A stretch of 64,000 nucleotides of DNA from a virus. The first letter of the stretch is position 1. Each line of letters opens with the position of its first letter. The stretch covers positions 15,874 through 79,873 of IMG/VR virus record IMGVR_UViG_3300034064_001073, one strand, 5' to 3'. Positions 1 through 64,000 of this stretch are shown here, in pieces. The notes beneath the pieces are model-generated. The model saw nothing but the letters and a program-made list of their open reading frames with translations. It was not told the origin of the DNA and made no database searches. The translations under genes and the position numbers were made by a program.

Positions 1-217
1 TTTCTTCCTGCGAACTTATTCTTTCAGGTGGAACTTCAAAATACAGATCATTAATCCAAAAGGCATGATTGAACTTATCACCATACTCTTGGTATCCAGT
101 ATTTAGCAAAGCATCGCTAACTGTTTCTCCATCAACATTTTCATCTAAGTAATTCTTAGCAGCATAAGAGTCTATTCTAGCTCTTCCACCACCAGCGTTA
201 TATCTATTATCAGCCAT
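1..217 (-). CDS. Partial CDS running off the left edge; probable tail/baseplate protein
   Basis: Manual translation MADNRYNAGG...FWINDLYFEVPPERISSQEE is open to base 1. Its ATG overlaps the TAA of the upstream gene (TAATG coupling at 215-219). Confidence 0.7.
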   Translation of the reverse strand, partial: MADNRYNAGGGRARIDSYAAKNYLDENVDGETVSDALLNTGYQEYGDKFNHAFWINDLYFEVPPERISSQEE

Positions 218-50417: not shown

Positions 50418-50950
50418 GAATTCCTCTTCGTTACTATTTATCTCTAGTAATTAAACTTTCCTATAAGAGCTGATACCATAAATTTTGCTGTATAGGGACA
50501 AAAGAAAAGCCTTATATATTATTTAAGGAAAGCTCTATATATATTTTAGGAAAAAAGTCTAAAGAAAAGCTAGGGGAAAAGGGGGTATAGGTCTAGGATA
50601 AAAGTCCTTTATCTCTGTAACTTATATTTATTTTTATATTTTTATGGAAAAGAGTGGGTACTTATACTCGTGGGCCCCTATACTTACCCTACCCCTATCC
50701 CGTTTTAGCCCACCCCCTTTAAAGACTATGTACCAGGGGATGAGGGTCTTTCCAACTCTCACCAATTGCTAGCATCCCGCTAGCTTTGGACATTACCCCA
50801 CAAGGGTAGTAAGGAACGCCATGTGCACGCTCGCACAAGCCCCCACCCCCACCACACACACCTCCATCACACACACTACCATGAATAACATTCATAACAA
50901 CAATAACAACACCATCACGAATAACGATAACGTCAACATCAACGAAGAGA
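50418..50950. other. Divergent strand-switch region with a composition boundary
   Basis: Gene orientation flips here. An AT-rich tract is followed by C-runs and a G-free C/A tract (50840-50882), and GC and codon usage change abruptly. Confidence 0.7.
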
Positions 50951-50955
50951 AGAAA

Positions 50956-51762
50956 ATGAAGATCGACCGCGAAGATAAGTTCATGTTCTCTATCATTATG
51001 GTACTTGTTACGTTCATTACGACACTGTTCATCTATTCGGTGAGTATCACTCGTGAACATGCGGCGGCTATGTATGAGAAAGAAGTCCGTCAGGCTGTCT
51101 GGGTAGCCGATAGCGACTATGCAGAGGTTGTGATGCAGTTGGAAGAGTACCTTGACGAAAAGTTTCATGCAGAAAACAATATCCACCATGGTATTGGCCC
51201 TGTTGCAACCAAAGGCGATAAGGGCCCTCTTGAGGACACTTGGGACTGTACCGCTTGGAAGTGGAAGGGTAAAGTCTATACGGCAGAACACTGTGTACGT
51301 GAAAACTACGAGGAAACTATGGGTGACGTAGTTGTATCGGCTGATAAGTACCCCCATGCCATCAAAGAGGATCTATATGACATCGGTATTGAATGTAGCA
51401 CGGATCTGCGCTGGTGGGGTGCGAATACGGACATGTGGGGCTACATTCCTTTTGAGCAGGCATTTAATCACTATAAGCAAGTAGTGAATGGTGCAACTGT
51501 TACTAATCAGCGCTTCATCTGTGCTGCTAGCATCAGCCTTGAGATTGCTCCTGTGGTTGGCGACTCTGGTGGCCCGCTTATGGCTGGTGATGAAGTCATT
51601 GGCTTCGTCAGCTATGGTGAGAGCCCGAAGTGGGCTGACAGTGATATGCTTGAGAACTTTGACATCAAATATAAGGACGCCCTATATGGTGACCTTACAT
51701 ATTGCTGGGGTGTACTGGATAGAAGCCAGGATACGATCAGCAAGTCGGAACAGTCCAACTAA
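50956..51762 (+). CDS. Membrane-anchored trypsin-like serine protease
   Basis: YTAEHCV (His), YDIGI (Asp) and GDSGGPL (Ser) triad motifs, plus an N-terminal TM helix. Start is uncertain (ORF is open from 50821). Confidence 0.85.
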   Translation: MKIDREDKFMFSIIMVLVTFITTLFIYSVSITREHAAAMYEKEVRQAVWVADSDYAEVVMQLEEYLDEKFHAENNIHHGIGPVATKGDKGPLEDTWDCTAWKWKGKVYTAEHCVRENYEETMGDVVVSADKYPHAIKEDLYDIGIECSTDLRWWGANTDMWGYIPFEQAFNHYKQVVNGATVTNQRFICAASISLEIAPVVGDSGGPLMAGDEVIGFVSYGESPKWADSDMLENFDIKYKDALYGDLTYCWGVLDRSQDTISKSEQSN

Positions 51763-54700
51763 TGCTTAATAACATGAAAAATAACATCAACATTAATAAG
51801 GTGAATCTCATGTACAAGTTTCTTGCTCTTGCTTTTGCCATCTTCTTCGCAGTGGAGTTTGCTATGTTTGATATTGTGGAAGTCATGAAGAATGTTCTCA
51901 TTGCCGTTGCCCTTGTTGCCACTGGTGCATTTGCTGCAATGCTAAAAAACAACATCGCCCTTACGGGCAAGGAGAATCCCGCCATGGGAATTGAGCGTTT
52001 GGCCTGTACGGCTCGCATCTTCGTTGCAAGCGTTATTGCAGCGATCTTCCCTGTCGTGACCGCTCAGCATGCGGTCGAAATCCACTTCATCTTCGGCTTT
52101 ATCAGGTCGATTGTGGAGAGTGTTGCTCTGCAGTCTAAGTCGTTCCGCGTTAAGATGGCAAAAGTCATCAAGGCTCGCGGTCGTCGTATGGCCAAGGCGA
52201 AAAACTGGACGGTCATCCGCTACCAGCGTTGGTTGGTAAAGTGGGGCATGGCCAATAAGGCAAAGAAGGCAAAGATGAAGAAGAGCAACAACAGCTTTGT
52301 TGTTAAGGTAAGCAAGATGTCACGTGAACAGCGCCGTCGCCTTGCTCACCAGTGGCGCAAGAAGGCAGGAATTAAGCACGTGAACAAGGTTGTCTTGCCA
52401 TCTGACAAGAAGGAGCCGATGTTCATCTACAGCGAGGGATCCAAGATTCCTGGTGGCCGTAAGAGCTCGCCGCCTGCCTTTATCCATGTGGCAACAACCA
52501 TTGCCGCACGCAAGCGCAACAACAACGGTGGAAAGAACGTGAAGACTGGTCCTGCGTTCAACACTCGTGCCAGGATTCTTGCACAGCTTGACCGCAAGAA
52601 GAACGAAAAGACTCGTCCTCAGAACGAGATCAAGGCGCGAATCGCTGCACGCAAAGCAGCTCGCCGCCACGTCAGGGCAAACAGCCCTATCTTGGCAATG
52701 ATTGCCGCAATCGCCATCACTGGCCGTGACTTGGCTGATTCCCTTATGGGGCAGTCGCTGACGGAACTTCTGCAGGGTGGGCCTGCATTTGTGATCTTCG
52801 GCATCATTGCCGTCATCTGTGGCCTTGCTCTTCTCAACTGGGCAAATCAGGAAGAGAAGAAGGGCGATAATGGCGACGAGACGGGCAAATTCCGCCTGTA
52901 CAGCGGTCCCTTTGTGGGCCAGGGAGAGAATATGGAAGACGACAATACCCAGACCGCCAAGGAGGTCAAGATGGGAATGATTGAGAACAGCAATAACGTG
53001 CTTCGGGCTATCCTCGAAAAGCTCACGGGGGTTGGCAATGAAATGACGTCTCCGATGGCTAAGAGCGACAGGGAGGTTAAGACTTATGGTCGTACCCTTG
53101 ATGCCCTTGGCTACGAGGAGACGGCTCTCACCATCCTCCATAAGGGTTTCCGTAAAATGGTCATTCGTGACCTGACGGACGACGATGTTCGTGCCCTGGA
53201 AGGTAAGTTCATCTGGAAGACCGAGAACTGCATGGTTATCGTCCGTGACAGCCAGCAATACGAGATGCCCAATGAGTGCTTTACTGCACTGATGAAGGCG
53301 GTCGTGGTTGCTGGTCAGGTCCCTGACAGCAAGAAGGTTGTAACCCTGCAAGAGGTCAACAAGTACATGGGCTCGCTCCTGTGGGCTCGTGCCTCGGTGG
53401 TCTCCATCAAGCTCAGCGAGATCCTTGTCATGAGCAAGGCAGTATCGGATCTCTACGACGGCACCGTCTACGTTTCGGCCACGTTTGCGGCTCAGGCTGG
53501 CTGGCAGGGTTACGCGATTCGTCGTATCCTCACGGCCAAGGGCTTGGTCAAGGGCATGGTTATCGTGCTCCCTGACACGTACTTCCCGGCCGGTATCAGC
53601 ATCATTGCGAGTGAGATCAAGCAGCACTTGTCTCTTCGCAACGATAACGGTAAGGCCATTGTCATGCAGCCTCAGGGCGATGGTCACAGTGGTTCGGCCC
53701 GTACACTCTCCATGCAGCTCTGGGCAATGATCATGGGTGTCTTTGTTGGCAGCAAGCGCTTCGATGCGTTCGCTAGCGACAGCTACAAGGATGCCATGAA
53801 CGGCTTGGACAAGGCCACGGAGAAGATGCTTGATCCTGCTGAAGAAGGCGAGGATGGCCGTGACAAGCTGCTGGCAGAGGCGGCACGTCAGCACGGGTTC
53901 AATCCCGTCGCGGCATTCCGCAGCTACGGCATGGCCCTTGCGCAGGGTCTCACCAAGGCCTTCAACCCGAAGAAGGTCAACCTTGCACCTAAGAGTGCTA
54001 ATGGCAAGGTCCTCGCTCCTGAAGGGTATCCCATGATGATCCCCTGGATGGCGCTTGCCGATGCATTCACTAATGCCAAGCAGGATGTACCCGCCTGGAT
54101 GGCAGAGAAGCTTGAGGTCGCTATCGTTATCGAGAAGGCCTTGATGAAGCGTGCGAATGGCGCTATTCCTGTACTTGTGAGCAATCTCAAGATGCTGGAT
54201 GCTGCCAAGGTCAACGGCATCCGTCAGTATGTCATTGCTGCGATTGCTACTCGTATCCCGACGGGTAAGACCTCGGGTATCGAAGTTCTCCTGTTCGACG
54301 CTGACGAGTTCGGCACCCGTCCTGTGGACATCGGACCTGGCCTTGTCGGTCGCAAGAGCAAGGATGTAGAGTTCTGGTTGTTCCCCAACCAGGAGACTCT
54401 TGCATTCAAAATGGCTTCGGAAGGCGGCGACGATGATGACCTTTACAAGTTTCTAACTGGCAAGCTCCTTGAGATTGCTCGTGACGGTCTTGTGTGGCGC
54501 GACAGCATCCTCGAAGAGACCTCTGAGTCAAAGGACAAGGAGACGAAGCTGCGTAATTTCCTCAAGAAGTTCGCAGCAGAGATGCGCATCGACAAGGGCA
54601 AGCTTACCGCCATGATGGACATGCCCTTCGCCAAGAAGTTCGCAGCTGGTAAAGTTATGGTCGGCTGGCCGTCGCTCCTCGGCGTCAAGAAGGTATCCGA

Positions 54701-57700
54701 TGGGTACCGCATTGAGATCGAGGAAGTCAACGAGGACGCTATCTTTATGACGGTCAACAGCCGTCAGGACATCGAAGCGCAGATGGACTTGTTTGCGAAG
54801 ACCATGGTGGCAAACAATGATAGCCCGTTCAGCGCGGCCATCGGTACGGTCGCGCAGTCTCACAAGTTCGCCTTGGGCATCTTGGCGGGTCACGTTGTGC
54901 TTCCTGAGCACATCCGTCACATTGCCAAGGACTGGGCGCTGTTCGTGGTCCGCACCATCCTGCTTTCTGACATGGTCGATGCCTGTAACAAGGGCAAAGG
55001 CTACAAGAAGGCTGCAGAGGCACTCCAGGAGCTCAATTGGGCCTGGGGCTGGCTCTGTTACCAGATTGCCAAGGTCGAGGACGCTAAGGTCGTATGCCCC
55101 AGCCAGTACCTGGTAAGCGTGCCTCCCATGGCTCGTGACCTGTTCAAGGCCCGTCATGCAGAGACCTATGAGCTGGATGGCAAGACCCGCAAGCCTGGTT
55201 CAATGCTTGCTAACTTGTTCAGCTACCATGAAAAGCTGGGCAATGCGGTAGAAGCTCTTGCTACCAGTCAGCATGACCGCATGGAGTTCGCAGCTACCGT
55301 GAGCGTAATGGCTGACGCAGTTTCGATCCCGATGGGTGGTGCTCCCTCTGCCCAGGCGTTCGTTGCTCCTATCTGGAAGAAGGTCTGGTCGGAGAGCGGT
55401 CGTCTCAAGACCTACCTTGATGGCCTTCAGTGGCTGTCTGAGCGGAAAGAAGAGGGCAATGATGACGTCAAGGCTAATCAGCGCTATATGGCTGAGCTCA
55501 ACGACATCACGGTGTGGGCGGCTCACGCGGAATTCGACATGACTGTCCTTGCTGCTCTTGTGGACGCCAATCCCAAGGCAAGCAAGGCTGAGATCGAGGC
55601 TATGTTCAAGATCGCCAAGCTTGCCATGATTTACGTCAATGGCTTCAAGGCGCTGCACGTACCAGACAACAGCATCAAGATCATCATGGACAAGGACGGC
55701 AAGTTCGTGGCCTCGGGTGGTGTTGCTGGCTACCTTCTTCCGACCTGTGGCTCAAGCAGCTGTGTCGGCAAGGATGGAGAGGCGGAGTTTGTGGGTGGCA
55801 GTGAGATCCTCATCGAGTGGATGATGGATCCTGCGGTCATTGCTGCAGTCGCCGCACGCAAGGCTGTTGATGGCGACTTCAAGTTCGTGACCTTTGTCAT
55901 GAAGACGGATGCCTTCGGTGATGTAGTCAACGGTAAGCGTCCTCTCCTTTACACGGAAGACGACTTCACTGGTAAGACCGTCATGGAGATTCTCGGGATG
56001 CCTGGTGTCTACTTGGCTGGCAATACCGATGATGAGGCTCACGAGATGCAGAGCACGTTCCTTGCTGGCATCGCAGACGATGTCAAGAAGAAGCGCAAGG
56101 ACACGCTTGTTGCAATGAAGCGCGCGATTGCCGACGCCAAGGCCCGTGCTGCAGAGGCTAAGACGCAGAACAAGCATAAGCTTTATGCTCAGCTTATGCA
56201 GCAGGCCGCAGAGGCTCAGGACAAGCTGACCGCCTTTGCCGCGAGCTCGTTCGCAGAGCTTCTTGGCGCATTCAAGATCCGCAGCGTCGAGGAGAATGTC
56301 AAGGGCACTGCAGTTGTCGAGACCATCGACACCTTCCTCTGGCAGGACGCTAAGAAGCAGGCGTATGCTCAGTACCACAACACCTTTGTTATCGTCAAGT
56401 TCGAGTCTGACTCGGATCCTGAGGGTGACAAGGTTGAGGTTGTTGCTCCTGTTGAGGTTGTCGCAGCTCCTGTGGTGCCTGCTGTTGTGGCTCCTATTGT
56501 GGCTCCTGTTCAGAAAGATAAGGGTGATCTTCTTGGTCGGCTTAACCGCATTCATAATGTCAAGGAGCCTGCTGTTGTGGCAACTCCTGCCGTGACTCCC
56601 GTTTACCGGATCGCTTTCACGGGTCACCGCCCTGAGAAGATTGGTGGCTACGATGAGAGCAGCCCGATGCGCGTCGCTGTGAAGAACGCCATTGCAGATG
56701 CATTGAAGCGTGCAATTGCTAAGCATGGCGAATCCAAGGAGATCATCGTCGTTACGGGCGGTGCCCTCGGTGTAGATACTGATGCAGCCCGTGAAGCGTA
56801 CAAGCTTGGTCTTAAGTTCATCGTGGCGCGTCCTTGCAGTGACCACGGTGAAAACTTCAAGGCTGACGCTAAGGTTGCCTATCAAAAGATGCTCAAGATT
56901 GCTCATAAGGTTGTTCTCGTCAATGAGCAGCCGTACGACTTGGCAGGCAAAGCAGACTGTCTCCATGCCCGCAACCGCTGGATGGTCGACAACTGTGACG
57001 CTGTCGTTGCTATCTGGGACGGCTCTCCTAGCGGCACTTCGAACTGCGTTGCCTATGCAAAGAAGGCCAATCGTCCAATGATCATCATCAACCCGAATGA
57101 TCTAATGGGCAACGAACCTACTCCTCCTAGTGATCCTAAGCCTGCTCCTGAGACTGCTCCTAGTGTGAGATCAACAACGCTTGGTCTTCCTAATCGTCTT
57201 GCAGATCAGGTTGAAGTTGAAGCCAAACTCGGACTTCCTGAGGATGGTCGTAGCTTTACTGGAGAAATCCAGACACCAAACGGAAATACGATTGCAAGCA
57301 AATATACCCGCATTGTGTACGGCGACCATGGTCCCTACATCGAGCTCGATGCTGCTAGTGTTGACCTTAGCAAATGGCAGATCCGTCAGAAAGGTTCTCA
57401 GGCTTGGTATGACGAAGCCCGGCTTGATGGAGTAATGCTGTACATTCAAAATCGGGATGTCAGCACCCTCCCGAATCCTCCTGCGGGCGCAAAGTCTACG
57501 CGCAACAACCGCCCCGAAGGGTATGCAGACTATCAGCCAGGAATGCTGTACGTTGATCCCTTTAAGGTCAAGATTGTTCCTGCTGCTACTGTATCAGAGG
57601 TTCCTGCTGTGAAGAATGAACGCAAGGACTATCCCATCAGCGGTCATACCTACCGTGAGATCTTCCAGGAAAATGGCAAATATAGTGCTGAACTTGCAGA

Positions 57701-58292
57701 GAAGTTCTTCGACCTTGATTACGTCCTCGATCTGCGGCGCGAACCTCAGAACCAGCATGACAACAATGCGATTGCCCTGTATGCTCAAAGGGACAAAGTC
57801 GGATACGTGCCTAAGGATCTTGCAAAAATGCTTGCCCCCATGATAGATGCTAATCCTAGACAGAAGTACAACTTCCAAGCAGTAGTCACTGGTTGGGATT
57901 CTGGCTATCCTCGTTTTGCCTTGGAATTTGTAACCGTTCATCAGGGTCGTAAAGGAAAAGAAGATGGCCGCCAGTACCAGTACTGGGCAGTTGACAAGAA
58001 TGAAGCAAAAGACTACGGCTCCTTTGTTGACACAGCAATCGTCTCCCTCTCGACTATGATCTCCACCAAGGAAAATCCTGCGCGTTGGGACGAAATGAAG
58101 ACTCAGTACTCTAAGGTATCTGGCTACTGGTTTGACCTCTGCGATGGAGATACGGAAAGCCACAATAAGTTCTTTGCTTGGTTGGAAAACCAGGGACTCA
58201 CTGGTATCAACTTCCTTGGCGGCGAAGATAACAAGTATGTCGTCACCTTTGGAACTAAGGTGATTATGTCGCGCAAGAGCAATGTAGGCTAA
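51762..58292 (+). CDS. 2176-aa YonO/cellular-RdRP-like single-subunit RNA polymerase fused to SLOG (YspA/DUF1273-like), an unknown domain and HIRAN
   Basis: YDGTVYVS...R...KGLVKGMV...SEIK fits barrel 1 and ATRIP...LFP...ASEGGDDDDLY fits barrel 2. IAFTGHRP...TGGALGVD...RNRWMVD...WDGSPSGT is SLOG. LRREPQNQHDNNAIAL...VGYVP is HIRAN. There is a strong internal GGAGG-ATG at 52961-52973. Confidence 0.75.
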   Translation: MLNNMKNNININKVNLMYKFLALAFAIFFAVEFAMFDIVEVMKNVLIAVALVATGAFAAMLKNNIALTGKENPAMGIERLACTARIFVASVIAAIFPVVTAQHAVEIHFIFGFIRSIVESVALQSKSFRVKMAKVIKARGRRMAKAKNWTVIRYQRWLVKWGMANKAKKAKMKKSNNSFVVKVSKMSREQRRRLAHQWRKKAGIKHVNKVVLPSDKKEPMFIYSEGSKIPGGRKSSPPAFIHVATTIAARKRNNNGGKNVKTGPAFNTRARILAQLDRKKNEKTRPQNEIKARIAARKAARRHVRANSPILAMIAAIAITGRDLADSLMGQSLTELLQGGPAFVIFGIIAVICGLALLNWANQEEKKGDNGDETGKFRLYSGPFVGQGENMEDDNTQTAKEVKMGMIENSNNVLRAILEKLTGVGNEMTSPMAKSDREVKTYGRTLDALGYEETALTILHKGFRKMVIRDLTDDDVRALEGKFIWKTENCMVIVRDSQQYEMPNECFTALMKAVVVAGQVPDSKKVVTLQEVNKYMGSLLWARASVVSIKLSEILVMSKAVSDLYDGTVYVSATFAAQAGWQGYAIRRILTAKGLVKGMVIVLPDTYFPAGISIIASEIKQHLSLRNDNGKAIVMQPQGDGHSGSARTLSMQLWAMIMGVFVGSKRFDAFASDSYKDAMNGLDKATEKMLDPAEEGEDGRDKLLAEAARQHGFNPVAAFRSYGMALAQGLTKAFNPKKVNLAPKSANGKVLAPEGYPMMIPWMALADAFTNAKQDVPAWMAEKLEVAIVIEKALMKRANGAIPVLVSNLKMLDAAKVNGIRQYVIAAIATRIPTGKTSGIEVLLFDADEFGTRPVDIGPGLVGRKSKDVEFWLFPNQETLAFKMASEGGDDDDLYKFLTGKLLEIARDGLVWRDSILEETSESKDKETKLRNFLKKFAAEMRIDKGKLTAMMDMPFAKKFAAGKVMVGWPSLLGVKKVSDGYRIEIEEVNEDAIFMTVNSRQDIEAQMDLFAKTMVANNDSPFSAAIGTVAQSHKFALGILAGHVVLPEHIRHIAKDWALFVVRTILLSDMVDACNKGKGYKKAAEALQELNWAWGWLCYQIAKVEDAKVVCPSQYLVSVPPMARDLFKARHAETYELDGKTRKPGSMLANLFSYHEKLGNAVEALATSQHDRMEFAATVSVMADAVSIPMGGAPSAQAFVAPIWKKVWSESGRLKTYLDGLQWLSERKEEGNDDVKANQRYMAELNDITVWAAHAEFDMTVLAALVDANPKASKAEIEAMFKIAKLAMIYVNGFKALHVPDNSIKIIMDKDGKFVASGGVAGYLLPTCGSSSCVGKDGEAEFVGGSEILIEWMMDPAVIAAVAARKAVDGDFKFVTFVMKTDAFGDVVNGKRPLLYTEDDFTGKTVMEILGMPGVYLAGNTDDEAHEMQSTFLAGIADDVKKKRKDTLVAMKRAIADAKARAAEAKTQNKHKLYAQLMQQAAEAQDKLTAFAASSFAELLGAFKIRSVEENVKGTAVVETIDTFLWQDAKKQAYAQYHNTFVIVKFESDSDPEGDKVEVVAPVEVVAAPVVPAVVAPIVAPVQKDKGDLLGRLNRIHNVKEPAVVATPAVTPVYRIAFTGHRPEKIGGYDESSPMRVAVKNAIADALKRAIAKHGESKEIIVVTGGALGVDTDAAREAYKLGLKFIVARPCSDHGENFKADAKVAYQKMLKIAHKVVLVNEQPYDLAGKADCLHARNRWMVDNCDAVVAIWDGSPSGTSNCVAYAKKANRPMIIINPNDLMGNEPTPPSDPKPAPETAPSVRSTTLGLPNRLADQVEVEAKLGLPEDGRSFTGEIQTPNGNTIASKYTRIVYGDHGPYIELDAASVDLSKWQIRQKGSQAWYDEARLDGVMLYIQNRDVSTLPNPPAGAKSTRNNRPEGYADYQPGMLYVDPFKVKIVPAATVSEVPAVKNERKDYPISGHTYREIFQENGKYSAELAEKFFDLDYVLDLRREPQNQHDNNAIALYAQRDKVGYVPKDLAKMLAPMIDANPRQKYNFQAVVTGWDSGYPRFALEFVTVHQGRKGKEDGRQYQYWAVDKNEAKDYGSFVDTAIVSLSTMISTKENPARWDEMKTQYSKVSGYWFDLCDGDTESHNKFFAWLENQGLTGINFLGGEDNKYVVTFGTKVIMSRKSNVG

Positions 58293-58490
58293 TCTCTTTG
58301 CGACTAGAATGGTAAGCAACAAGCAGGCCATTTTTTTCTTCTTTCCTAAAATAGTCCAGATACTCCGCTGCCTTTGTTCGTTCCTCCGCGAAGGCCTATA
58401 TGTACCTTGTAATGCCTGCACCCGCCTGCATAGCCTCCTTCGTCGTCCAGATCTAGTGAGCACTTTTGCTCCTCTTGTACGGTGTCCCCC

Positions 58491-58673
58491 ATGGTCAATC
58501 CCGTTTTTGATGTCCTTACGAAGCCCCAACTCCTTGCGCTGCGGGCGATGCTCGTACACCAGGCCAGCCTCGACGAACTTGAGACCGCGGCCTACATCGA
58601 GACCTGCAAGACCCTCGTCGCAGAGATCGATGAGATGATGGAGCATGCCGAGATGTACTGCTCTGAAGTCTAA
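58491..58673 (+). CDS. Small early hypothetical protein
   Basis: Between promoter copy 1 and a terminator; codon usage like its neighbours. Start is 58482 or 58491. Confidence 0.6.
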   Translation: MVNPVFDVLTKPQLLALRAMLVHQASLDELETAAYIETCKTLVAEIDEMMEHAEMYCSEV

Positions 58674-58685
58674 CGCATCCTCTCA

Positions 58686-58717
58686 ACCCTCGGCTTCGGC
58701 TGGGGGTTTCGCTTTCT
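58686..58717 (+). terminator. Intrinsic terminator
   Basis: ACCCTCGGC-TTCG-GCTGGGGGT followed by a T-rich tail. Confidence 0.8.
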
Positions 58718-58915
58718 CACTCCGCTCCCCGGCCACAAGGCTCCAGCTGCAGCAGCCCTTCGGGAACCAGGCTCCGCTTCACAGTGGGGTAACTCCAGCA
58801 ACCAGGCCCTTCGGCCGCGACAAGGACCGTCAGCAGAGGGAAAAGAGGCCGGACTCCGCTGAATAACCAGATGGCTTGTGGCAACTAGGGGTCTTACGAG
58901 GCTCCTTCGTCGCCC

Positions 58916-59157
58916 AAAGCAGCGGATGGTGGCTGCCGCTACCCGTATCAGAGAAGGCCTGTCGGTCTCTGGTATGTATCAGACAGGGGCGGTTCCCAGT
59001 CCGCTTAACACAAAAACTGGCTGTCATCCCTTTAGGATGGCATGTTAATAAACGTCCCCTCTTGGACGTGTTCCTGGTAGTGGTAGTCCTACCTACTGCG
59101 TACCAGGATAGAGAGGTAAAGCCCCAGCACGGTAGGACGTGTTGGGGTTTTATTTTT
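58916..59157 (+). ncRNA. Structured multi-pseudoknot ncRNA, copy A
   Basis: Promoter-to-terminator unit with no credible ORF. Hairpin-loop CCTGTC pairs with GACAGG, CCAGT with ACTGG, and GTCCTAC with the terminator loop GTAGGAC. Homologous to copies B and C. Confidence 0.7.
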
Positions 59158-59221
59158 CTCACTCCGCTCAATAACCAGATGGCTCATACAACCAGGGGTC
59201 TAACGAGCTCCTTCGTCGCTT

Positions 59222-59555
59222 AAGTACGTGAGGTAGTTGCGCACCTCTTAGACATGCTCACAACCCTGGGTGAGCGTGAGGAGCCTAGCGAGGCAGGCAC
59301 AGAGGGAGAGTAGACTGGGCTCAATCCACCAGTAGATGCCACACCAATAGTTGTCGGGCATCAAAGCACTAGAAAGGGCCTGTCGGGTTCTAGTGTACAG
59401 TAGACAGGTGCGGTTGCCAATTCCGCATTACGATTTGGATAAGCCTCCTCTTAGGCTGATAGACTCGTAACTAGTAGTGACCCTGCTAGTGTCCTAATAC
59501 GAGATAGAGAAGTAGAGCCCCTGACACAGTAGGACGTGTTGGGGGTTTTATTTTT
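59222..59555 (+). ncRNA. Structured multi-pseudoknot ncRNA, copy B
   Basis: Same core as A with different stem sequences, an extra 5' domain of about 140 nt, and a near-identical terminator. Confidence 0.7.
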
Positions 59556-59623
59556 GTTACTCCGCTATATAACTAGATTACTAGTAAGTGTATAGTGGTT
59601 TGTTAGGGGCTCCTTCGTCGCCC

Positions 59624-59773
59624 AAAGCACTGGGCGTTGACGCTCTGCCATCTCCGTTGGTAGAGACTAGTTCTAATAGACGGGGAGTCCCAAGTCGTCC
59701 TTACGGGCTTGGATAAGACTATCAACAGAAGGACAGATTCCCACTACTAGGCCGGTAGTGGGTTTCTTTTTTT
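59624..59773 (+). ncRNA. Short pseudoknot ncRNA, copy C
   Basis: CTCTGCCA/TGGTAGAG stem whose loop TCTCCGT pairs with ACGGGGA; CCAAGT pairs with GCTTGG. Shares TTACG...TTGGATAAG with B and ends in the terminator CCCACTAC/GTAGTGGG plus a T-run. Confidence 0.6.
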
Positions 59774-59835
59774 GGCCTCCTTCGTCGGCCAGAGAACATG
59801 AGGCACTTTCGCCTCTTGGTCCATTGGAGGACAGC

Positions 59836-60048
59836 ATGAAAGCAGGCAAGTATCACTCCTACGACTGGCGCACAGAGCGGGATGCGGATGCTAATAGGAG
59901 CGTCTTCAGGGCCGCATGGAAGGCAAAGTTCCCTGGGGTCGTGCCGCAGTTCGCCATCATCTTGGATGACGGCAGTTGCCACTGGTGGAACGAGTGGCCG
60001 GATGGGCGGACTCGCCGCCTCCCGCCCGGCACATTCAACATCGAGTAA
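59836..60048 (+). CDS. Small early hypothetical protein
   Basis: GGAGG SD and ATG at 59836; lies between promoter copy 5 and the terminator at 60055-60087. Confidence 0.7.
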   Translation: MKAGKYHSYDWRTERDADANRSVFRAAWKAKFPGVVPQFAIILDDGSCHWWNEWPDGRTRRLPPGTFNIE

Positions 60049-60283
60049 AGATAGACCCCCTGACTTCGGTTGGGGGTTTTTCTTTTCTCACTCCGCTATA
60101 GACCTACAAGGCTCCAGCTCTCAGGCTCTTCGACGGTCGGCAGGTAGGAACCCAACAGCAAAAAGAGGCGAAAATATAGACTCCGCTATGGACCGGAAAG
60201 ACTTTCATCAACTAGTAGTGTAACGGCCTCCTTCGTCGGTTAGGTATGATGAGGTAATGTTGCCTCTGCATTGGAGAATGAAC

Positions 60284-60466
60284 ATGGATAGCGTTTTCTT
60301 TCTTGACAGCCTGAACAACGTATGGCAGACCTGTGGCGCTGACGATAACGATGCTGTGGCATTCGGGCCGAGGGGTTGCGCACGCCGCGTGCCTGCCGCC
60401 TGCTACAACGTTTACCAGAACGACGAGATCGAGGCTGGATGGCAGCTCATCGAGATCACTGGCTAA
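60284..60466 (+). CDS. Small early hypothetical protein
   Basis: GGAG SD; lies between promoter copy 6 and the terminator at 60473-60506. Confidence 0.65.
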   Translation: MDSVFFLDSLNNVWQTCGADDNDAVAFGPRGCARRVPAACYNVYQNDEIEAGWQLIEITG

Positions 60467-60613
60467 TGTGTGACCCTCTGGCTTCGGTCGGAGGGTTTCG
60501 CTTTTCTCGGCTCCGATGACCGGACGGATGGTTCCAGCTCCCAGTAGTCTTACGAGCCTCCTTCGTCGGCCAGAGCATCGGGCAATTGCGCCCCTATTTG
60601 ACTGGAGAATGTC

Positions 60614-61036
60614 ATGAACAGTGTGAACATGGTTGGCCTCCTTACGGCCAGTTCGAAGGTTGAGGGTGACTTTCTCTTCATCGTCCTGGACAACCAGGGC
60701 GAGATGCCGACTCTCGGTTTCAAGGGTAAGCAGAGAGAGGCGGTCGAGAAGTGGGGTGAGCCCAAGCGCATGGTGTCGGTGTCGGGCGCATTGCGTACCG
60801 TCATCAACGGCAACCAGAAGATGACCTTCGTGGATGTCGCCTATAGTCGCTTCCTTGACAGCCAGAAGAAGGTTGTTGAGGAAACGAAGGTTGCGGCCCC
60901 AGCAAAGGTTGCGGCCCCTGCGAAGGTTGCTGCTCCTGCGAAGGCTCCTGCAAAGGCTCCTCCGAAGGTCTCTGCAAAGGCTCCTGCCAAGGCTCCTGCG
61001 ACGGCTGCTCCAGTCGACAACGACGTGCCCTGGTAG
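60614..61036 (+). CDS. ssb: Single-stranded DNA-binding protein with an APAK-repeat linker
   Basis: MNSVNMVGLLT...VSVSGALRT...RFLDS fits the SSB OB fold; acidic-aromatic tail DNDVPW (compare DDIPF). Has its own promoter copy and terminator (61044-61078). Confidence 0.8.
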   Translation: MNSVNMVGLLTASSKVEGDFLFIVLDNQGEMPTLGFKGKQREAVEKWGEPKRMVSVSGALRTVINGNQKMTFVDVAYSRFLDSQKKVVEETKVAAPAKVAAPAKVAAPAKAPAKAPPKVSAKAPAKAPATAAPVDNDVPW

Positions 61037-61279
61037 ACTCGTGACCCTCTGGCTTCGGTCGGAGGGTCTTGCTTTTTGGGCTCCGCTCCCCGGCCACAAG
61101 GCTAGACCTACAACAGCCCTTCAGGAACAAGGCTCCGCTATAGACCTACAAAGTTCCAGCTCCCGTGGCTCTTCGGTCTGCGGAGGACCCGTCAGCAGAG
61201 AAAAAAGTGGCGAAAAATATAGGACCTCCTTCGTCGGTTAGGTTTTGTGAGGAATAGTCCTCGGAGTTTGGAGTATGTC

Positions 61280-61441
61280 ATGAAGTACGAGAAGGTTTCC
61301 CTTGAAGACTGCTATGGCGTTTCGACTGGCGGAGAAGATGACATGATCGAGAAGATCGATAACAAGAGCGAAGGAATGTGGGATCACCGCCCAGACCGTG
61401 TCGACTCGGAGTACATGGACTTCGAAGAGTACGAAGAGTAA
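61280..61441 (+). CDS. Small, very acidic early protein
   Basis: GGAG SD; 53 aa rich in D/E; terminator at 61448-61469. Confidence 0.65.
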   Translation: MKYEKVSLEDCYGVSTGGEDDMIEKIDNKSEGMWDHRPDRVDSEYMDFEEYEE

Positions 61442-61529
61442 AGAAATGGCCCGAAAGGGTTTTTTCTTTCCCCAGACTCCGCTCAATGTCTCGGATACTC
61501 GAACGATAAAGGGGCCTCCTTCGTCGGCC

Positions 61530-61959
61530 ACATTTATTGGGTTTTGACACTGGTCAGGCCAAAGATTTAAGGCGTCGAGTAGGTTACATTGCGAACTCTA
61601 GGGGATGTAAACCCTATTGCTCGTACTGCAAGACGTCACCTTCTAATCCTCTAGAAAAATCATAAGCGCGCCTACCGCTTATGGGAACCTAGAGGTGTCA
61701 GGGTTGCAAACCTGGCTATAAAGATAGGCTGGCTGCTAGTGGATCCCTGCCACTAGTGGACAAGATGAACATGGGGCTTTGTCTACTAGGTAGGACCCCT
61801 GCCGCTAGTAGCAAGATAGACATGGGGTGGTTACTAGTTCGCTAGTAACGACTGGGAAGGGGTTCGCACGCTAGCAAATAAGACGACCCGTACCCTTTTG
61901 ATTAGTCTGGTGACGCAACGGACCACACGCGGCTATGGGTTCGATTCCCATATGATTGA
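61530..61959 (+). ncRNA. About 430-nt structured RNA with a tandem pseudoknot repeat and a 3' tRNA-like element
   Basis: No ORF; dense inverted repeats; duplicated unit at 61733-61776 and 61783-61827; T-arm TATGGG-TTCGATT-CCCATA at 61934-61952. Confidence 0.6.
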
Positions 61960-61988
61960 ATTACTTTACCCGTCCTAAGGAGGACACA

Positions 61989-62447
61989 ATGAACATGAAT
62001 GAGCGTCTTGAAGATTTCGTAGAGAAGATGGGAATGCGATTGGGGTTCTTGTGGGATACTACTGCCAGCTTGACCTGGAGTGGTAACTTTGGGCCGACTG
62101 TCGAGAGGGTAGAGAAGGAAGGTGAGACGATGATGGGCGATTTCTACCTGACCAATGGATTGCTGCACAGCGATCACTGCGGACACAAGGCGACGTTCAC
62201 CATCAGTGTCCCCGGCCAGCACCCAGATGGGTTCATCATGAACTGGCTGAAGATCGAGATCACGAACCTTGACTGGAATGGCGACGGCATCACGCACGAT
62301 GATCCGACTTACTCCCTGCCTGAGTTGAGTTCCAAGTACAACAAGATGGAGTTCAGGGAGGGCTTGAAGTTGGCGGAAACGTCTGCTCAGATTATCGTGG
62401 ACTTTGAAATGGTCTTGGAGGATGTCAAGGCCTCCTTCGTCGGTTAG
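61989..62447 (+). CDS. Early hypothetical protein
   Basis: AAGGAGG SD and ATG at 61989. Promoter copy 10 overlaps its last codons. Confidence 0.75.
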   Translation: MNMNERLEDFVEKMGMRLGFLWDTTASLTWSGNFGPTVERVEKEGETMMGDFYLTNGLLHSDHCGHKATFTISVPGQHPDGFIMNWLKIEITNLDWNGDGITHDDPTYSLPELSSKYNKMEFREGLKLAETSAQIIVDFEMVLEDVKASFVG

Positions 62448-62580
62448 GTATCGTGACTAGTAGGTCAACAGTCTGCAACCTGCCTGTCGGTAGGATAACC
62501 TATCAGATGTCATGTCTGGTAGCCACAAAGGCTGAATCACTTCCTTATGGTACAAAACTGGTTCGAATCCAGTTAGGAAG
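62446..62580 (+). ncRNA. Structured leader ending in a minimal tRNA-like element
   Basis: Several hairpins, then CTTCCT...AACTGG-TTCGAAT-CCAGTT-AGGAAG at 62540-62580. Confidence 0.5.
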
Positions 62581-62607
62581 ACTTTACCCCCTTATATAGG
62601 TGACAAG

Positions 62608-62811
62608 ATGAAACATGTGCCCGGACATAGTTCGATGGATGAGCAGGCTATGGAGACTGTAATCTCTCATGGGAAGTTTCTTCTTGAGAGAGCAAATGCA
62701 GTACTACATTTATATCCCCAGCTCCAAGAGTATAGGGATGCACTGGTAGAGATGCAGAAGTATGCCGAGAAGGCAATGGATAATGGACACTTCCCCGATT
62801 CCGACCTCTAA
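62608..62811 (+). CDS. Small hypothetical protein
   Basis: AGGTGA SD; 67 aa. Confidence 0.65.
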   Translation: MKHVPGHSSMDEQAMETVISHGKFLLERANAVLHLYPQLQEYRDALVEMQKYAEKAMDNGHFPDSDL

Positions 62812-62829
62812 CGTCCTTAGGAGGACAAC

Positions 62830-63024
62830 ATGTACAATGCGACAATTTCGAAGAATCAAGAGACTGGTAGCGCGTTTCTCTCGGTCTACAACGAAGAGGG
62901 AAACCTTGTCATAGGTATCGACGTCCGTGCTGATGGTAGCATGGAGGTCCACAATCACGATGGTGTTGCTGGTTTCGACCACATCGCCTGCATCCATGAC
63001 GTTCTTTCACAGATCGCCAAGTAG
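62830..63024 (+). CDS. Small hypothetical protein
   Basis: AGGAGG SD; 64 aa. Confidence 0.7.
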   Translation: MYNATISKNQETGSAFLSVYNEEGNLVIGIDVRADGSMEVHNHDGVAGFDHIACIHDVLSQIAK

Positions 63025-63032
63025 GTTACAAG

Positions 63033-63491
63033 ATGAATATGAATACCGTTAAGGATATGGACAAGATCTTGGGAATCCTGGATGCCGAAGTGGCAAAGAG
63101 GAAGATTCCTTTTGATGCGATTCCAGAGAGAACAGGGGCGGAGTATCGTGCCCTAGCCGAAGACCATGAAGAGTATGTTGCTCTTCTTGCAAGAGAGAGG
63201 AAGGTAATCAATGCCTACTTCAATGCCGTTCAGATGCAGGAGTGGGCACAGAACCACAAGCGCTGGATACAGACGGGATTGAACGGTTATACTACCCATG
63301 AGTTGAGCCCTGTTGGCAAAGAGACCCTGAAGAAGTTCATCAGCAAAATAGTTGAGGAAACCTGGTGGGATGCCAATGAGGACCGCCTTATGGCAGAATT
63401 CGAAAGTTCCCGCCAGTACCTCGGTGACGACGACCGCAACTTTGAGTGGTACATTGAGAGAGAATATGAGACTTACCTTCGCAACCTTTAA
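63033..63491 (+). CDS. Hypothetical protein
   Basis: 152-aa ORF in a tightly packed operon. Confidence 0.7.
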   Translation: MNMNTVKDMDKILGILDAEVAKRKIPFDAIPERTGAEYRALAEDHEEYVALLARERKVINAYFNAVQMQEWAQNHKRWIQTGLNGYTTHELSPVGKETLKKFISKIVEETWWDANEDRLMAEFESSRQYLGDDDRNFEWYIEREYETYLRNL

Positions 63492-63502
63492 CGAGAAAGA
63501 CA

Positions 63503-63649
63503 ATGAAGCATATCAATCTTAGAGTGTTTGTCGTAAACAAGGGTATCATTATTAGTGAGAGACACAATGATGTCCAGACTGCGATGAATCGGGGCGAGAG
63601 TCTTGCTTCCAGCTTGGGTGGTCGATGGACTATCACAATTAACAAGTAA
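63503..63649 (+). CDS. 48-aa hypothetical protein not in the ORF track
   Basis: MKHINLRVFVVNKGIIISERHNDVQTAMNRGESLASSLGGRWTITINK, starting 11 nt after the previous stop. Confidence 0.55.
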   Translation: MKHINLRVFVVNKGIIISERHNDVQTAMNRGESLASSLGGRWTITINK

Positions 63650-64000
63650 ACAGAGATTGGGGAAAACGCGTTATCCCCCCAATAGGTAACACTGGTTGAT
63701 CCTTTAAAAAGGCCAGAGGTTTGGTAACCCAGAAAATCCTGCCAAGATCTAGTCCGCTAGATTGGGAGCACAAACAACTGTCCTAGTTCAGAAAATAACT
63801 AGGTGGTACGTCTGGTAATCCAGAACGCAAGGGCCTCTTCTTCTAGCAATAAAAGGAGGGGCCCTTTAACTTTCCCTCAACCCCGGAGACGATGTGTTTG
63901 ACAAGACGGCATTTGTTGTTTTCGTAATCTTGCTATATGGGACTAGACTACTAGTCGTAGATTTCCCAGTGATACTATCAACGCTGGATCTACTACTATG

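Follow-up and report, generated by a model that had tools for sequence, protein, structure and literature searches.

What is the function of a short motif that recurs ten times, always on one strand, just behind the gene for a 2176-amino-acid (aa) protein of a large lake-water phage, and which enzyme reads it? The stretch analyzed here (the window) comprises 64,000 nucleotides (nt), bases 15874-79873 of a single 79,873-bp virus contig, which is a fragment of a large lake-water myovirus with a CheckV completeness estimate of 46%. An earlier note on this DNA, made from the letters alone, had proposed that the motif is a promoter read as a DNA hairpin on the template strand. We consider it reasonably probable that the ten copies are template-strand hairpin promoters read by a phage-encoded two-barrel RNA polymerase. 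They would then constitute one phage-specific promoter class on the high-GC + strand arm of a ~170-kb lake myovirus and would head short, terminator-bounded early units that consist of small open reading frames (ORFs) and structured RNAs. The signal itself would be a mini-hairpin of the template strand, built from two covarying flank pairs, a C-G pair, tandem sheared G.A/A.G oppositions, a second C-G pair and a G-N-A triloop, followed by a single-stranded Y-A-R-R box within which RNA synthesis would start. Its reader would be a phage-encoded single-chain two-barrel polymerase, for which the 2176-aa protein encoded directly upstream is the likeliest candidate and a candidate virion polymerase of the tail module the alternative. 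Such a logic would resemble that of the virion RNA polymerase of phage N4, although the enzyme families are unrelated.

We scanned the whole contig on both strands for the motif, whose position 1 is the first base of an 11-base core, with -1, -2 and -3 denoting the upstream and +12, +13 and +14 the downstream flank. The sequence CTCCTTCGTCG has ten exact matches, all on the + strand and spanning 58435-62442 (core starts in Table 1), and no further exact copy was found on either strand across the full 79,873 bp; the tenfold repeat reported in the earlier note was thus confirmed, and the wider scan added nothing to it. When up to one mismatch was allowed, the window yielded 11 matches, compared with 0.46 expected from shuffles. 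At -1:+12, copies 2-4 have G-C and copies 5-10 have C-G, with the mismatch C.T confined to copy 1, which agrees with the claim that this pair is Watson-Crick in nine of ten copies and swaps orientation along the array. At the next pair, -2:+13, copies 3 and 8 have A-T, copies 6 and 10 have G.T, and the remaining six have G-C. The claimed eight Watson-Crick pairs of ten are therefore there, but the strength implied for the template strand is not, since the G.T of copies 6 and 10 becomes C.A, a weaker pair, on that strand. Positions 13-15 read Y-Y-A in all ten copies, as had been noted, and the coordinates previously listed for the invariant A were correct, being those of the motif start plus 14. 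The reverse complement had likewise been read correctly as C-G, G.A, A.G and C-G closing a GAA loop; because this inner pairing is invariant in the window, it is uninformative either way when taken alone. The stretch is present in lake-water metagenomes from several studies, and the contigs of four lake-water DNA runs near-identical to it show zero variants in any motif copy.

The arrangement of the copies relative to genes and terminators is shown in Table 1. All window copies are co-oriented with the genes, and most of them lie directly after a terminator or a short spacer; copy 10 lies inside the end of an ORF. Each copy leads either into an ORF-less structured unit or into a leader hairpin with a ribosome-binding site and the start codon ATG behind it. 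The distances from motif start to ATG in the five ORF-led units are 56, 59, 50-56, 56 and 54 nt, and these units carry a GC-rich leader hairpin from about motif position 24 plus a GGAG ribosome-binding site, while the other five copies (2, 3, 4, 9 and 10) head ORF-less structured stretches. Sigma-70-like sites in the array number 4, against 4.5 expected from shuffles. Copy 5 immediately follows the T-run that closes the terminator before it, and as no other motif intervenes, the copy-5 unit is left with no alternative start signal. This unit layout is that of a promoter array, and it is very likely that the motif functions as a promoter. The leader hairpins, at motif positions ~24-42 (e.g., 59800-59815, 60251-60266 and 61249-61262), have covarying stems (GAGGC/GCCTC, GGGC/GCCC, GAGGA/TCCTC) and sit ~8-10 nt past the presumed start; one is also carried by the microvirus and L088 copies described below. 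Such a hairpin could aid the peeling of the RNA from the template.

Table 1. Positions of the motif copies and of other features (window coordinates unless another contig is named)
Feature	Position	Strand	Remarks
Putative promoter copy 1	58433-58451	+	core 58435-58445, flank pairs, Y-A-R-R box; -1:+12 C.T; heads 60-aa ORF 58491-58673
Putative promoter copy 2	58900-58918	+	core 58902-58912, flank G-C; heads ORF-less structured unit to terminator ~59122-59158
Putative promoter copy 3	59206-59224	+	core 59208-59218, flanks G-C and A-T; heads ORF-less unit to terminator ~59518-59556
Putative promoter copy 4	59608-59626	+	core 59610-59620; heads ORF-less unit to terminator 59740-59762
Putative promoter copy 5	59775-59793	+	core 59777-59787, flanks GGC/GCC; heads 70-aa ORF 59836-60048
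Putative promoter copy 6	60226-60244	+	core 60228-60238; heads small ORF 60278-60466
Putative promoter copy 7	60556-60574	+	core 60558-60568; heads 140-aa SSB-like ORF 60614-61036
Putative promoter copy 8	61224-61242	+	core 61226-61236, flanks C-G and A-T; heads 53-aa ORF 61280-61441
Putative promoter copy 9	61514-61532	+	core 61516-61526; heads ~430-nt ORF-less structured stretch, then ORF 61989-62447
Putative promoter copy 10	62430-62448	+	core 62432-62442; overlaps last codons of ORF 61989-62447; heads tRNA-like ORF-less stretch, then ORFs from 62608
Proposed template-strand, purine-rich hairpin as oligonucleotide			d(GGCCGACGAAGGAGGCC)
Intrinsic terminator ending unit 4	59740-59775	+	stem-loop plus T-run (stem part 59740-59762)
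Further intrinsic terminators	60057-60086, 60472-60507, 61043-61078, 61448-61471	+	terminator search
Terminators read by eye	~58687-58719, 59122-59158, 59518-59556	+	sequence inspection
Second motif, (A/G)CTCCGCT, ACTCCGCT	58362-61484	+	11 copies; CTCCGCT starts 58363, 58720, 58772, 58854, 59162, 59560, 60091, 60181, 61081, 61133, 61477
Predicted polymerase gene, 2176 aa	51762-58292	+	two-barrel fold predicted at aa ~500-1120; SLOG aa 1617-1781; HIRAN aa 1989-2031
313-aa ORF, trypsin-like segment	50821-51762	+	first gene of + strand arm
Divergent AT-rich intergenic region	50418-50820		hairpin motif absent; CT(C/T)TATATA words repeat
Candidate virion two-barrel polymerase, 2330-aa ORF in tail module	217-7209	-	S-S-D-F-D-G-D at aa 1854-1860
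140-aa ORF, product SSB-like (lead)	60614-61036	+	OB-like N-terminus, Ala/Pro/Lys repeat linker, acidic tip D-N-D-V-P-W
Core copies in unrelated 92-kb phage G005	L154 (= L182) 10207, 10410, 12885		reverse-strand orientation coordinates
Microvirus tandem pairs	L051 1330-1390 and 6005-6065 (-); L127 745-815

Homologues of the 2176-aa protein occur in metagenomes at 37-67% identity, and two of the contigs encoding them provided motif copies for comparison. The complete 174,107-bp genome G001, which has terminal repeats and a polymerase 48% identical to that of the window, contains 15 copies of CTCCTNCGTCG, 15 forward and 0 reverse, all of them intergenic, and a control with the reversed pattern gave 0. 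Ten of the G001 copies lie in the same array just behind the polymerase gene and five further along the + strand arm; three of these five are located 31-84 nt ahead of ORFs that open long + strand operons. Three G001 copies directly follow a terminator T-run without an upstream motif. The content of the cassettes between copies differs between the window and G001. One more copy lies behind the polymerase gene of the 4.7-kb fragment L006 (polymerase 55% identical), which brings the set to 26 (10 from the window, 15 from G001 and 1 from L006). Within the core of these 26 copies only position 6, the loop centre, varies (T in 15, G in 9, A in 2). The triloop on the template strand is accordingly G-A-A, G-C-A or G-T-A, with A at its centre in all ten window copies and C (9) or T (2) in copies of G001, and the reverse complement CGACGNAGGAG reads C-G-N-A-G in 26 of 26 copies, N alone varying. 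Past the core, A is found at +15 in every copy, a purine at +16 in 24 and at +17 in 25, and T or G at +18 in all.

For the analysis of covariation, the template strands of the 26 copies were aligned, pairs were counted, and the counts were compared with those from 500 column shuffles and from slid registers. The pair +12:-1 is C-G in 14 copies, G-C in 9 and something else in 3, and the pair +13:-2 is G-C in 21, A-T in 2, G.T in 1 and something else in 2; a third flank pair (+14:-3) is unsupported, with pairing in just 16 of the 26. None of the 500 shuffles matched the observed covariation score or paired share, and slid registers were 25-64% paired compared with 88.5% in the true register. Both flank orientations are found within each genome, also amid similar upstream contexts: copies 2 and 7 have the upstream sequence ...TCTTACGAG in common and then jointly differ at -1 and +12. 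Taken together, these data show that the flanks pair.

A more distant relative was found by a scan with a wider alignment. This 146-kb contig, L255, encodes a polymerase core 27% identical to that of the window, and the units behind its polymerase gene contain zero copies of CTCCTNCGTCG and carry GCTGCGC at the same place. The template strand there reads GCGCAGC, the canonical mini-hairpin; behind it come a fixed box (TCGCCTTTCATG) and a leader hairpin, and then the ribosome-binding site with its ATG. The same C-G-N-A-G element at the same place in a new spelling is what is predicted for a signal read by its structure. A profile search of genome contigs with the polymerase alignment and related-locus searches with the homologues P0013 and P0017 returned nothing.

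The inner oppositions differ in kind between the strands: on the + strand they would be T.C and C.T, and on the template strand G.A and A.G (5'-GA/3'-AG) under a C-G-closed G-N-A loop. Since standard folding (see below) is uninformative on the strand, the case for the template strand rests on chemistry, that is, on G.A pairs as against pyrimidine-pyrimidine mismatches, and on the mini-hairpin literature. The d(GCGNAGC) mini-hairpins, to which the N4 promoter heptamer GCGGAGC belongs, melt at ~76 C and are far more stable than standard models predict (PMC13037366), and the hairpin recognized in the N4 complex, which lies on the template strand, contains a sheared pair of -10G with -12A (PMC4496689). 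Thus, the promoter proposed in the earlier note is supported by the anatomy of the units and by comparison, and the proposed hairpin by flank covariation, variation confined to the loop centre and the respelled GNA mini-hairpin of L255, while the choice of the template strand draws on chemistry and literature. Two other identities of the motif were set aside: a UNCG tetraloop on the + strand, whose closing pair would be C.U, and a Rho-independent terminator, as no T-run follows the motif.

Among known signals the element appears to work most like the N4 early promoters, which form hairpins on the template strand that combine a triloop of GGA or GAA with a sheared G:A pair and contain the GCGGAGC heptamer (PMC4496689, PMC13037366). 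With the N4 promoters P1-P3, read by the virion RNA polymerase gp50 (Schitoviridae), it would have in common the template-strand hairpin, the 3-nt G-N-A loop, the sheared G:A and the closing C-G; in both, stem positions are kept by compensating changes, which in N4 concern uncontacted positions and here show as flips of +12:-1 (0/500 shuffles). A short single-stranded spacer then leads to a purine start, which is a presumed start in our case, and the signals head early genes (PMC4496689, PMC13037366). N4-type promoters also depend on SSB and on negative supercoiling. The N4 start lies 11 nt downstream of the loop centre, and the same geometry would put the start here at position 17, where 25 of 26 copies have a purine; this is two bases past the invariant A, at or near which the earlier note had proposed the start. 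The likeness fails on stem continuity, on the free loop centre and on the polymerase family. N4 has perfect stems of 5-7 bp, whereas here two flank pairs, C1-G11 and C4-G8 would be available with two G.A oppositions between them. N4 needs a purine at the loop centre (-11), which is contacted by W129 and R119, whereas the centre here is free, with A, C or T on the template in the window's phage family and G in other lineages. Finally, there are three N4 promoters compared with 10 to 15 copies here, and a T7-like enzyme reads them, in contrast to the adjacent two-barrel, cell-like polymerase predicted here.

The d(GCGNAGC) mini-hairpins and the G4-type origins that contain them (PMC13037366) share with our element the C-G-N-A-G core with sheared G.A, the position on the strand that templates RNA synthesis and the occurrence in intergenic regions of microviruses. 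Unlike them, the main motif reads A-C-G-N-A-G-G, so that a tandem G.A block plus an outer C-G replaces the second G-C pair; the canonical heptamer is present on the template strand in L255 (GCGCAGC) and in 3 of 11 copies of the second motif described below (GCGGAGC). Priming in G4 reportedly copies the hairpin region itself, a geometry unlike the present one.

We next turn to the reading enzyme. The first structural model of the 2176-aa protein (1200 aa, 11 sequences) had a predicted local distance difference test score (pLDDT) of 56.5, and Foldseek and VIA searches with it returned noise and helical-hairpin matches. Searches with phmmer and profiles against PDB sequences found the SLOG and HIRAN domains only, hhalign of the protein against gp64 and gp96 of Thermus phage P23-45 found no similarity, and Pfam found no polymerase family in any of 11 family members, its RNA-dependent RNA polymerase (RdRP) family also missing the 2176-aa protein itself. 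An exhaustive profile-free search gave 20 polymerase family members. Invariants of a 27-sequence alignment include R831, P833, G888, D890, D892 and D893 (2176-aa numbering), and G-G-D-x-D-D stands at aa 888-893 in 27 of 27 members, giving a metal loop one residue shorter than D-x-D-G-D. A model of the 621-aa core (aa 500-1120) reached a pLDDT of 86.5 and a predicted template modeling (TM) score, pTM, of 0.83. With this core, Foldseek retrieved QDE-1 (2j7n_A, E 1.6e-6, probability 1.00, TM 0.44) and plant RDR2, the phage proteins P74 gp62 (3.4e-5), P32 gp64 (5.8e-5) and P23-45 gp96 (0.011), and next the vaccinia and Pol II large subunits. On the strength of these matches to the modeled core, the 2176-aa protein is predicted to be a QDE-1/RDR/YonO/P74-gp62-type RNA polymerase, single-chain and two-barrel, in which the metal loop is shortened. 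In G001, the counterpart of the 313-aa ORF that precedes it and the polymerase are fused in one 3763-aa ORF. The window's own polymerase is also encoded on a 153-kb contig. In a search for a T7-like virion RNA polymerase, Pfam PF00940 had no match in G000 or G001, nor in any control genome.

A 2330-aa protein of the tail module is, from its sequence, a candidate virion two-barrel polymerase, as in P23-45; its G001 homologue (L131; 29-49% identical) has D-F-D-H-D and so keeps the three aspartates. An Atlas lead for the same protein (RdRP cluster, 0.79) was at chance level and was dropped. The intergenic region upstream of the polymerase operon (50418-50820) shares long identical stretches with G001 even though the proteins are just ~48% identical; a different (pre-early) class of promoter that drives this operon may be sited there. 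Because the hairpin motif is absent upstream of the polymerase operon, and by analogy with P23-45, the data suggest a cascade in which the polymerase gene is transcribed by another enzyme and its product goes on to read the hairpin promoters. It is also possible that the enzymes are assigned to the promoter classes the other way round.

The pre-early genes of P23-45 form a terminator-promoter array read by a two-barrel polymerase (PMC10770324) and offer the closest parallel in layout. Both phages would encode a pair of two-barrel polymerases, with one member of the pair belonging to the tail module (here a candidate only), both have short units in which each terminator is followed at once by a phage-specific promoter (PMC10770324), and both would have tandem promoters of two classes before some genes; moreover, the gp64 homologues P74 gp62 and P32 gp64 are among the structural matches of the 2176-aa core. 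In contrast, the P23-45 promoters are the linear motifs TTATTCCTTTA (next to the start) and TCTAGGGGC, with no hairpin reported (PMC10770324), and the enzymes differ in that hhalign detects no sequence similarity, the catalytic loop is D-x-D-D here as opposed to D-x-D-G-D, and SLOG and HIRAN are appended here. YonO of the Bacillus prophage SPbeta, likewise a two-barrel phage polymerase made of a single chain, transcribes a gene set of its own, and its promoter is undefined (PMC5467207). A literature search found no published description of hairpin promoters for two-barrel phage polymerases. The non-virion RNA polymerase of AR9 is reportedly a two-barrel phage enzyme that reads the template strand as well, but it is said to be multisubunit and to recognize a linear uracil-containing motif. 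Promoters read as a template-strand DNA shape are documented for one enzyme only, the T7-like N4 virion polymerase, and promoter finding by single-chain two-barrel phage polymerases is largely open, as the YonO promoter is undefined and P23-45 has linear motifs only. If a two-barrel enzyme reads the hairpin, this design would have arisen twice, in unrelated polymerase families, and the motif would provide a short, defined template for biochemical and structural studies of how a minimal relative of the cellular RNA polymerases recognizes its promoter. With its tandem sheared G.A oppositions below a GNA triloop, the sequence is also a candidate for a new, very stable DNA mini-hairpin.

The array contains a second repeated motif, (A/G)CTCCGCT (Table 1). 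Six of its 11 copies lie 3-8 nt past a terminator T-run and five lie 39-50 nt upstream of a copy of the main motif; G001 has 7 copies, and in L255 the second motif overlaps the mini-hairpin, as ACTCCGCTGCGCT. The reverse complement of this motif holds C-G-G-A-G, in the form of the N4 heptamer GCGGAGC in 3 copies and of GCGGAGT in 8, and the alternation of A and G preserves a pair (T.G or C-G) on the template strand only. By analogy with the tandem promoters before P23-45 ORF63, the second motif may be the promoter class of a second polymerase.

In a scan of IMG/VR, the core was sought with flanks of GC..GC or CC..GG. The majority of contigs gave single hits of the kind expected by chance, and the distribution of extra paired flanks had a heavy tail, with 7 hits having at least 5 pairs compared with ~1.8 expected by our geometric estimate. 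What is new here is the occurrence of the core with paired flanks before genes of an unrelated 92-kb phage, G005, and on the packaged strand of microviruses. The core is found three times in G005, with GCC/GGC flanks and, downstream, a conserved box, GGCGCCAGCAAATGAAATAAA; two of the copies lie ~60-75 nt ahead of ribosome-binding sites. It also encodes a segment R-S-P-H...F-D-V-D-G-D...D-A-A-K-T-G that matches Pfam RdRP with E 5.8e-6, under the curated cut-off. The motif copies and this YonO/RdRP-like segment together point to a second, canonical two-barrel lineage associated with the same signal. The G005 polymerase gene is apparently split over frames (ORFs 3828-4169, 4203-4670, 4731-5132 and 5184-5840, the last being L256 5184-5840). 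A protein search for the window-type polymerase core in the motif-bearing contigs G002-G008 found nothing. The 8.4-kb fragment L088 carries the core four times, each time with C as the loop centre, and two or three of these copies precede + strand ORFs.

Two contigs with the core, L051 and L127, are microviruses, as seen from PHROG matches to the major head protein (E 3.5e-84) and the replication initiator (E 5.5e-50), and they share 57% identity in their capsid proteins. In each of the two, CCC-core-GGG and GGC-core-GCC-AGA-TTTTT stand as a tandem pair, followed by a GC hairpin and a T-run, with GCC-AGA after the core as in the window; the intergenic region around the pair is 93% identical between the two, and the sole difference in the core is T versus G at the loop centre. 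The CTCCTNCGTCG form is opposite to the gene strand, so the packaged, gene-sense strand bears the G-N-A form. RNA copied from that strand would start just past the hairpin, as proposed for the myovirus, and the tandem pair fits a candidate complementary-strand origin; its occurrence on the packaged strand is a lead to where that origin lies, and it independently supports RNA synthesis starting beside a template-strand hairpin. L080 and L196, two more distant microviruses, each contain one like-oriented copy, and the copy in L031, a fifth small contig with only a weak replication-initiator match, is oriented the opposite way. We estimate that ~1-2 microvirus single hits are expected by chance for two 14-base patterns, which leaves only the L051/L127 lineage firm, and the orientation count of three lineages one way versus one the other is non-significant. 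It is possible, though we doubt it, that the 11-base hairpin is a portable start signal common to unrelated freshwater phage lineages, including microviruses, in which it would stand ready-folded on the packaged strand. If so, either a host enzyme would start RNA at the mini-hairpin and large phages would hijack this priming signal for early transcription, or microviruses would rely on the two-barrel polymerase of a co-infecting phage or prophage to prime their complementary strand.

Several points weigh against template-strand hairpin promoters read by a phage two-barrel polymerase, of which hairpin formation, the start site and the reading enzyme are the parts that we infer. Covariation cannot separate the strands: the G.T cells of copies 6 and 10 favor the + strand, and A.C cells elsewhere favor the template strand. 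The covarying pair is C.T in copy 1, in one G001 copy and in the L006 copy, and since many copies are orthologous between the two phages, the independent flips are fewer than the cell counts. Nearest-neighbor folding (ViennaRNA, DNA parameters) gave 0 to -4 kcal/mol, the same on both strands and no better than shuffles for most copies, with the core treated as a 9-nt loop, and the extra stability is borrowed from literature on related but non-identical sequences. The 4-5 Watson-Crick pairs that are available are broken up by the 2x2 G.A block, so extrusion from GC-rich duplex would be harder for this short, interrupted stem than for the perfect 5-7 bp stems of N4. Outside the family, the contig G002 (L025; 43 kb, 97% complete), in which no polymerase was found, has three copies (43, 1199 and 2402, - strand) that oppose the predicted ORFs; they lie in intergenic gaps, inside longer palindromes with outer 9-bp stems. 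The core also occurs in microviruses, which encode no polymerase, so that a host enzyme or a borrowed phage polymerase comes up as the reader.

Part of this evidence could be accommodated without any hairpin, if the same promoter array were read as an ordinary 11-mer in duplex DNA, either by the polymerase or by host RNA polymerase with a phage specificity factor, and the flank complementarity had another cause, e.g., that a G/C clamp is favored on either side. An invariant core is what T7-type or T4-late single-element promoters have, and the little or no stability in standard folding and the few Watson-Crick stem pairs would be expected; CGTC with a purine 6-7 nt on also presumably resembles the -10 elements of extracytoplasmic function (ECF) sigma factors. 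A clamp, however, leaves unexplained why -1 and +12 are complementary in 23 of 26 copies, in both orientations and in none of 500 shuffles, and why the sole free core position is the exact centre of the proposed triloop. L255 keeps a respelled GNA mini-hairpin at the same place, and the differing flanks of the other lineages again pair (CCC/GGG, GCC/GGC, AGC/GCT, stems of 6-7 bp). We therefore find a duplex-read promoter rather unlikely. The microviruses, in turn, raise the idea that host RNA polymerase or primase initiates at the hairpin, a signal used by large phages for early genes and by microviruses for priming the complementary strand, and that the phage polymerase reads another signal, e.g., ACTCCGCT. 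Primase, however, would make products much too short to account for units that measure 200-900 nt and include ribosome-binding sites and terminators, we know of no bacterial polymerase that reads so small a hairpin in duplex DNA, and two unrelated motif-bearing large phages both encode two-barrel polymerases. The tandem core pair of L051 and L127 with the G-N-A form on the packaged strand of phages that encode no polymerase, the like-oriented single copies of L080 and L196, the wider conservation of ACTCCGCT than of the main motif in the polymerase family and the mini-hairpins reported at complementary-strand origins of G4-type phages (PMC13037366) all suit this idea, but the single microvirus hits are within chance and the orientation count, 3 versus 1, is non-significant. 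A host-read signal is thus distinctly unlikely in our judgment.

We give little weight to the idea that the motif acts in RNA, as a leader hairpin or processing site of transcripts that start upstream, e.g., at ACTCCGCT. This motif does lie 39-50 nt upstream of five or six copies, the flank pairs could form in RNA too, where the G.U cells of copies 6 and 10 would suit, the loop CUCCUNCGUCG of such a leader hairpin resembles an anti-Shine-Dalgarno sequence, and the core with its preceding C reads CCUCCUU, which we take to be like the 16S rRNA 3' end. Yet copy 5 and three G001 copies directly follow a terminator T-run with no upstream motif, the motif also heads ORF-less units without a ribosome-binding site, the + strand RNA would have U.C and C.U mismatches and a stem of just 3-4 bp, and neither the invariant CGTCG nor A15 would be explained. 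Non-transcriptional roles, as recombination or cassette-junction (attC-like) sites or as replication priming sites between gene cassettes, deserve hardly any credence. Strand-specific DNA hairpins are substrates of integron and IS200/IS605-type recombinases, and the copies do bound small, variable gene and RNA cassettes whose content differs between the window and G001; the near-fixed distance of 54-59 nt to start codons, the strict co-orientation with genes and the position after terminators, on the other hand, suit a promoter, the G001 motif also heads long conserved operons, and the ORFs scanned near the array included neither an integrase nor a Y1 transposase.

The genome around the array has two arms. 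PHROG matches to tail sheath, portal, large terminase and major head protein fall on a minus-strand arm of 39% GC, and the + strand arm begins at 50.8 kb with the 313-aa ORF, the 2176-aa ORF and then the motif array, at 52-55% GC. The composition step is sharp (early arm, 50800-62000, 52-55% GC versus structural arm, 1-50000, 38-44%), and the high-GC island is kept in G001, at 115.7-131 kb. Searches with blastn of 57000-64000 and of the microvirus region against deposited phages found no match. Within the array, the ORF-less units 58916-59773, 61530-61960 and 62446-62600 are densely structured, with T-arm-like words at two places (GGTTCGATTCC near 61940 and GGTTCGAATCC near 62560); ARAGORN found no tRNA in the array units, Rfam at E<=1 gave a single sub-threshold NsiR1 match, and Pfam was silent on the small ORFs of the units, including the 140-aa ORF behind copy 7. 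In an Atlas structure search this ORF matched a cluster of SSBs, proteins that bind single-stranded DNA, with TM 0.59, and the acidic tip of its product resembles an SSB tail; an SSB-like product is a lead only. If the 140-aa protein is an SSB, there would be a parallel with the SSB dependence of N4.

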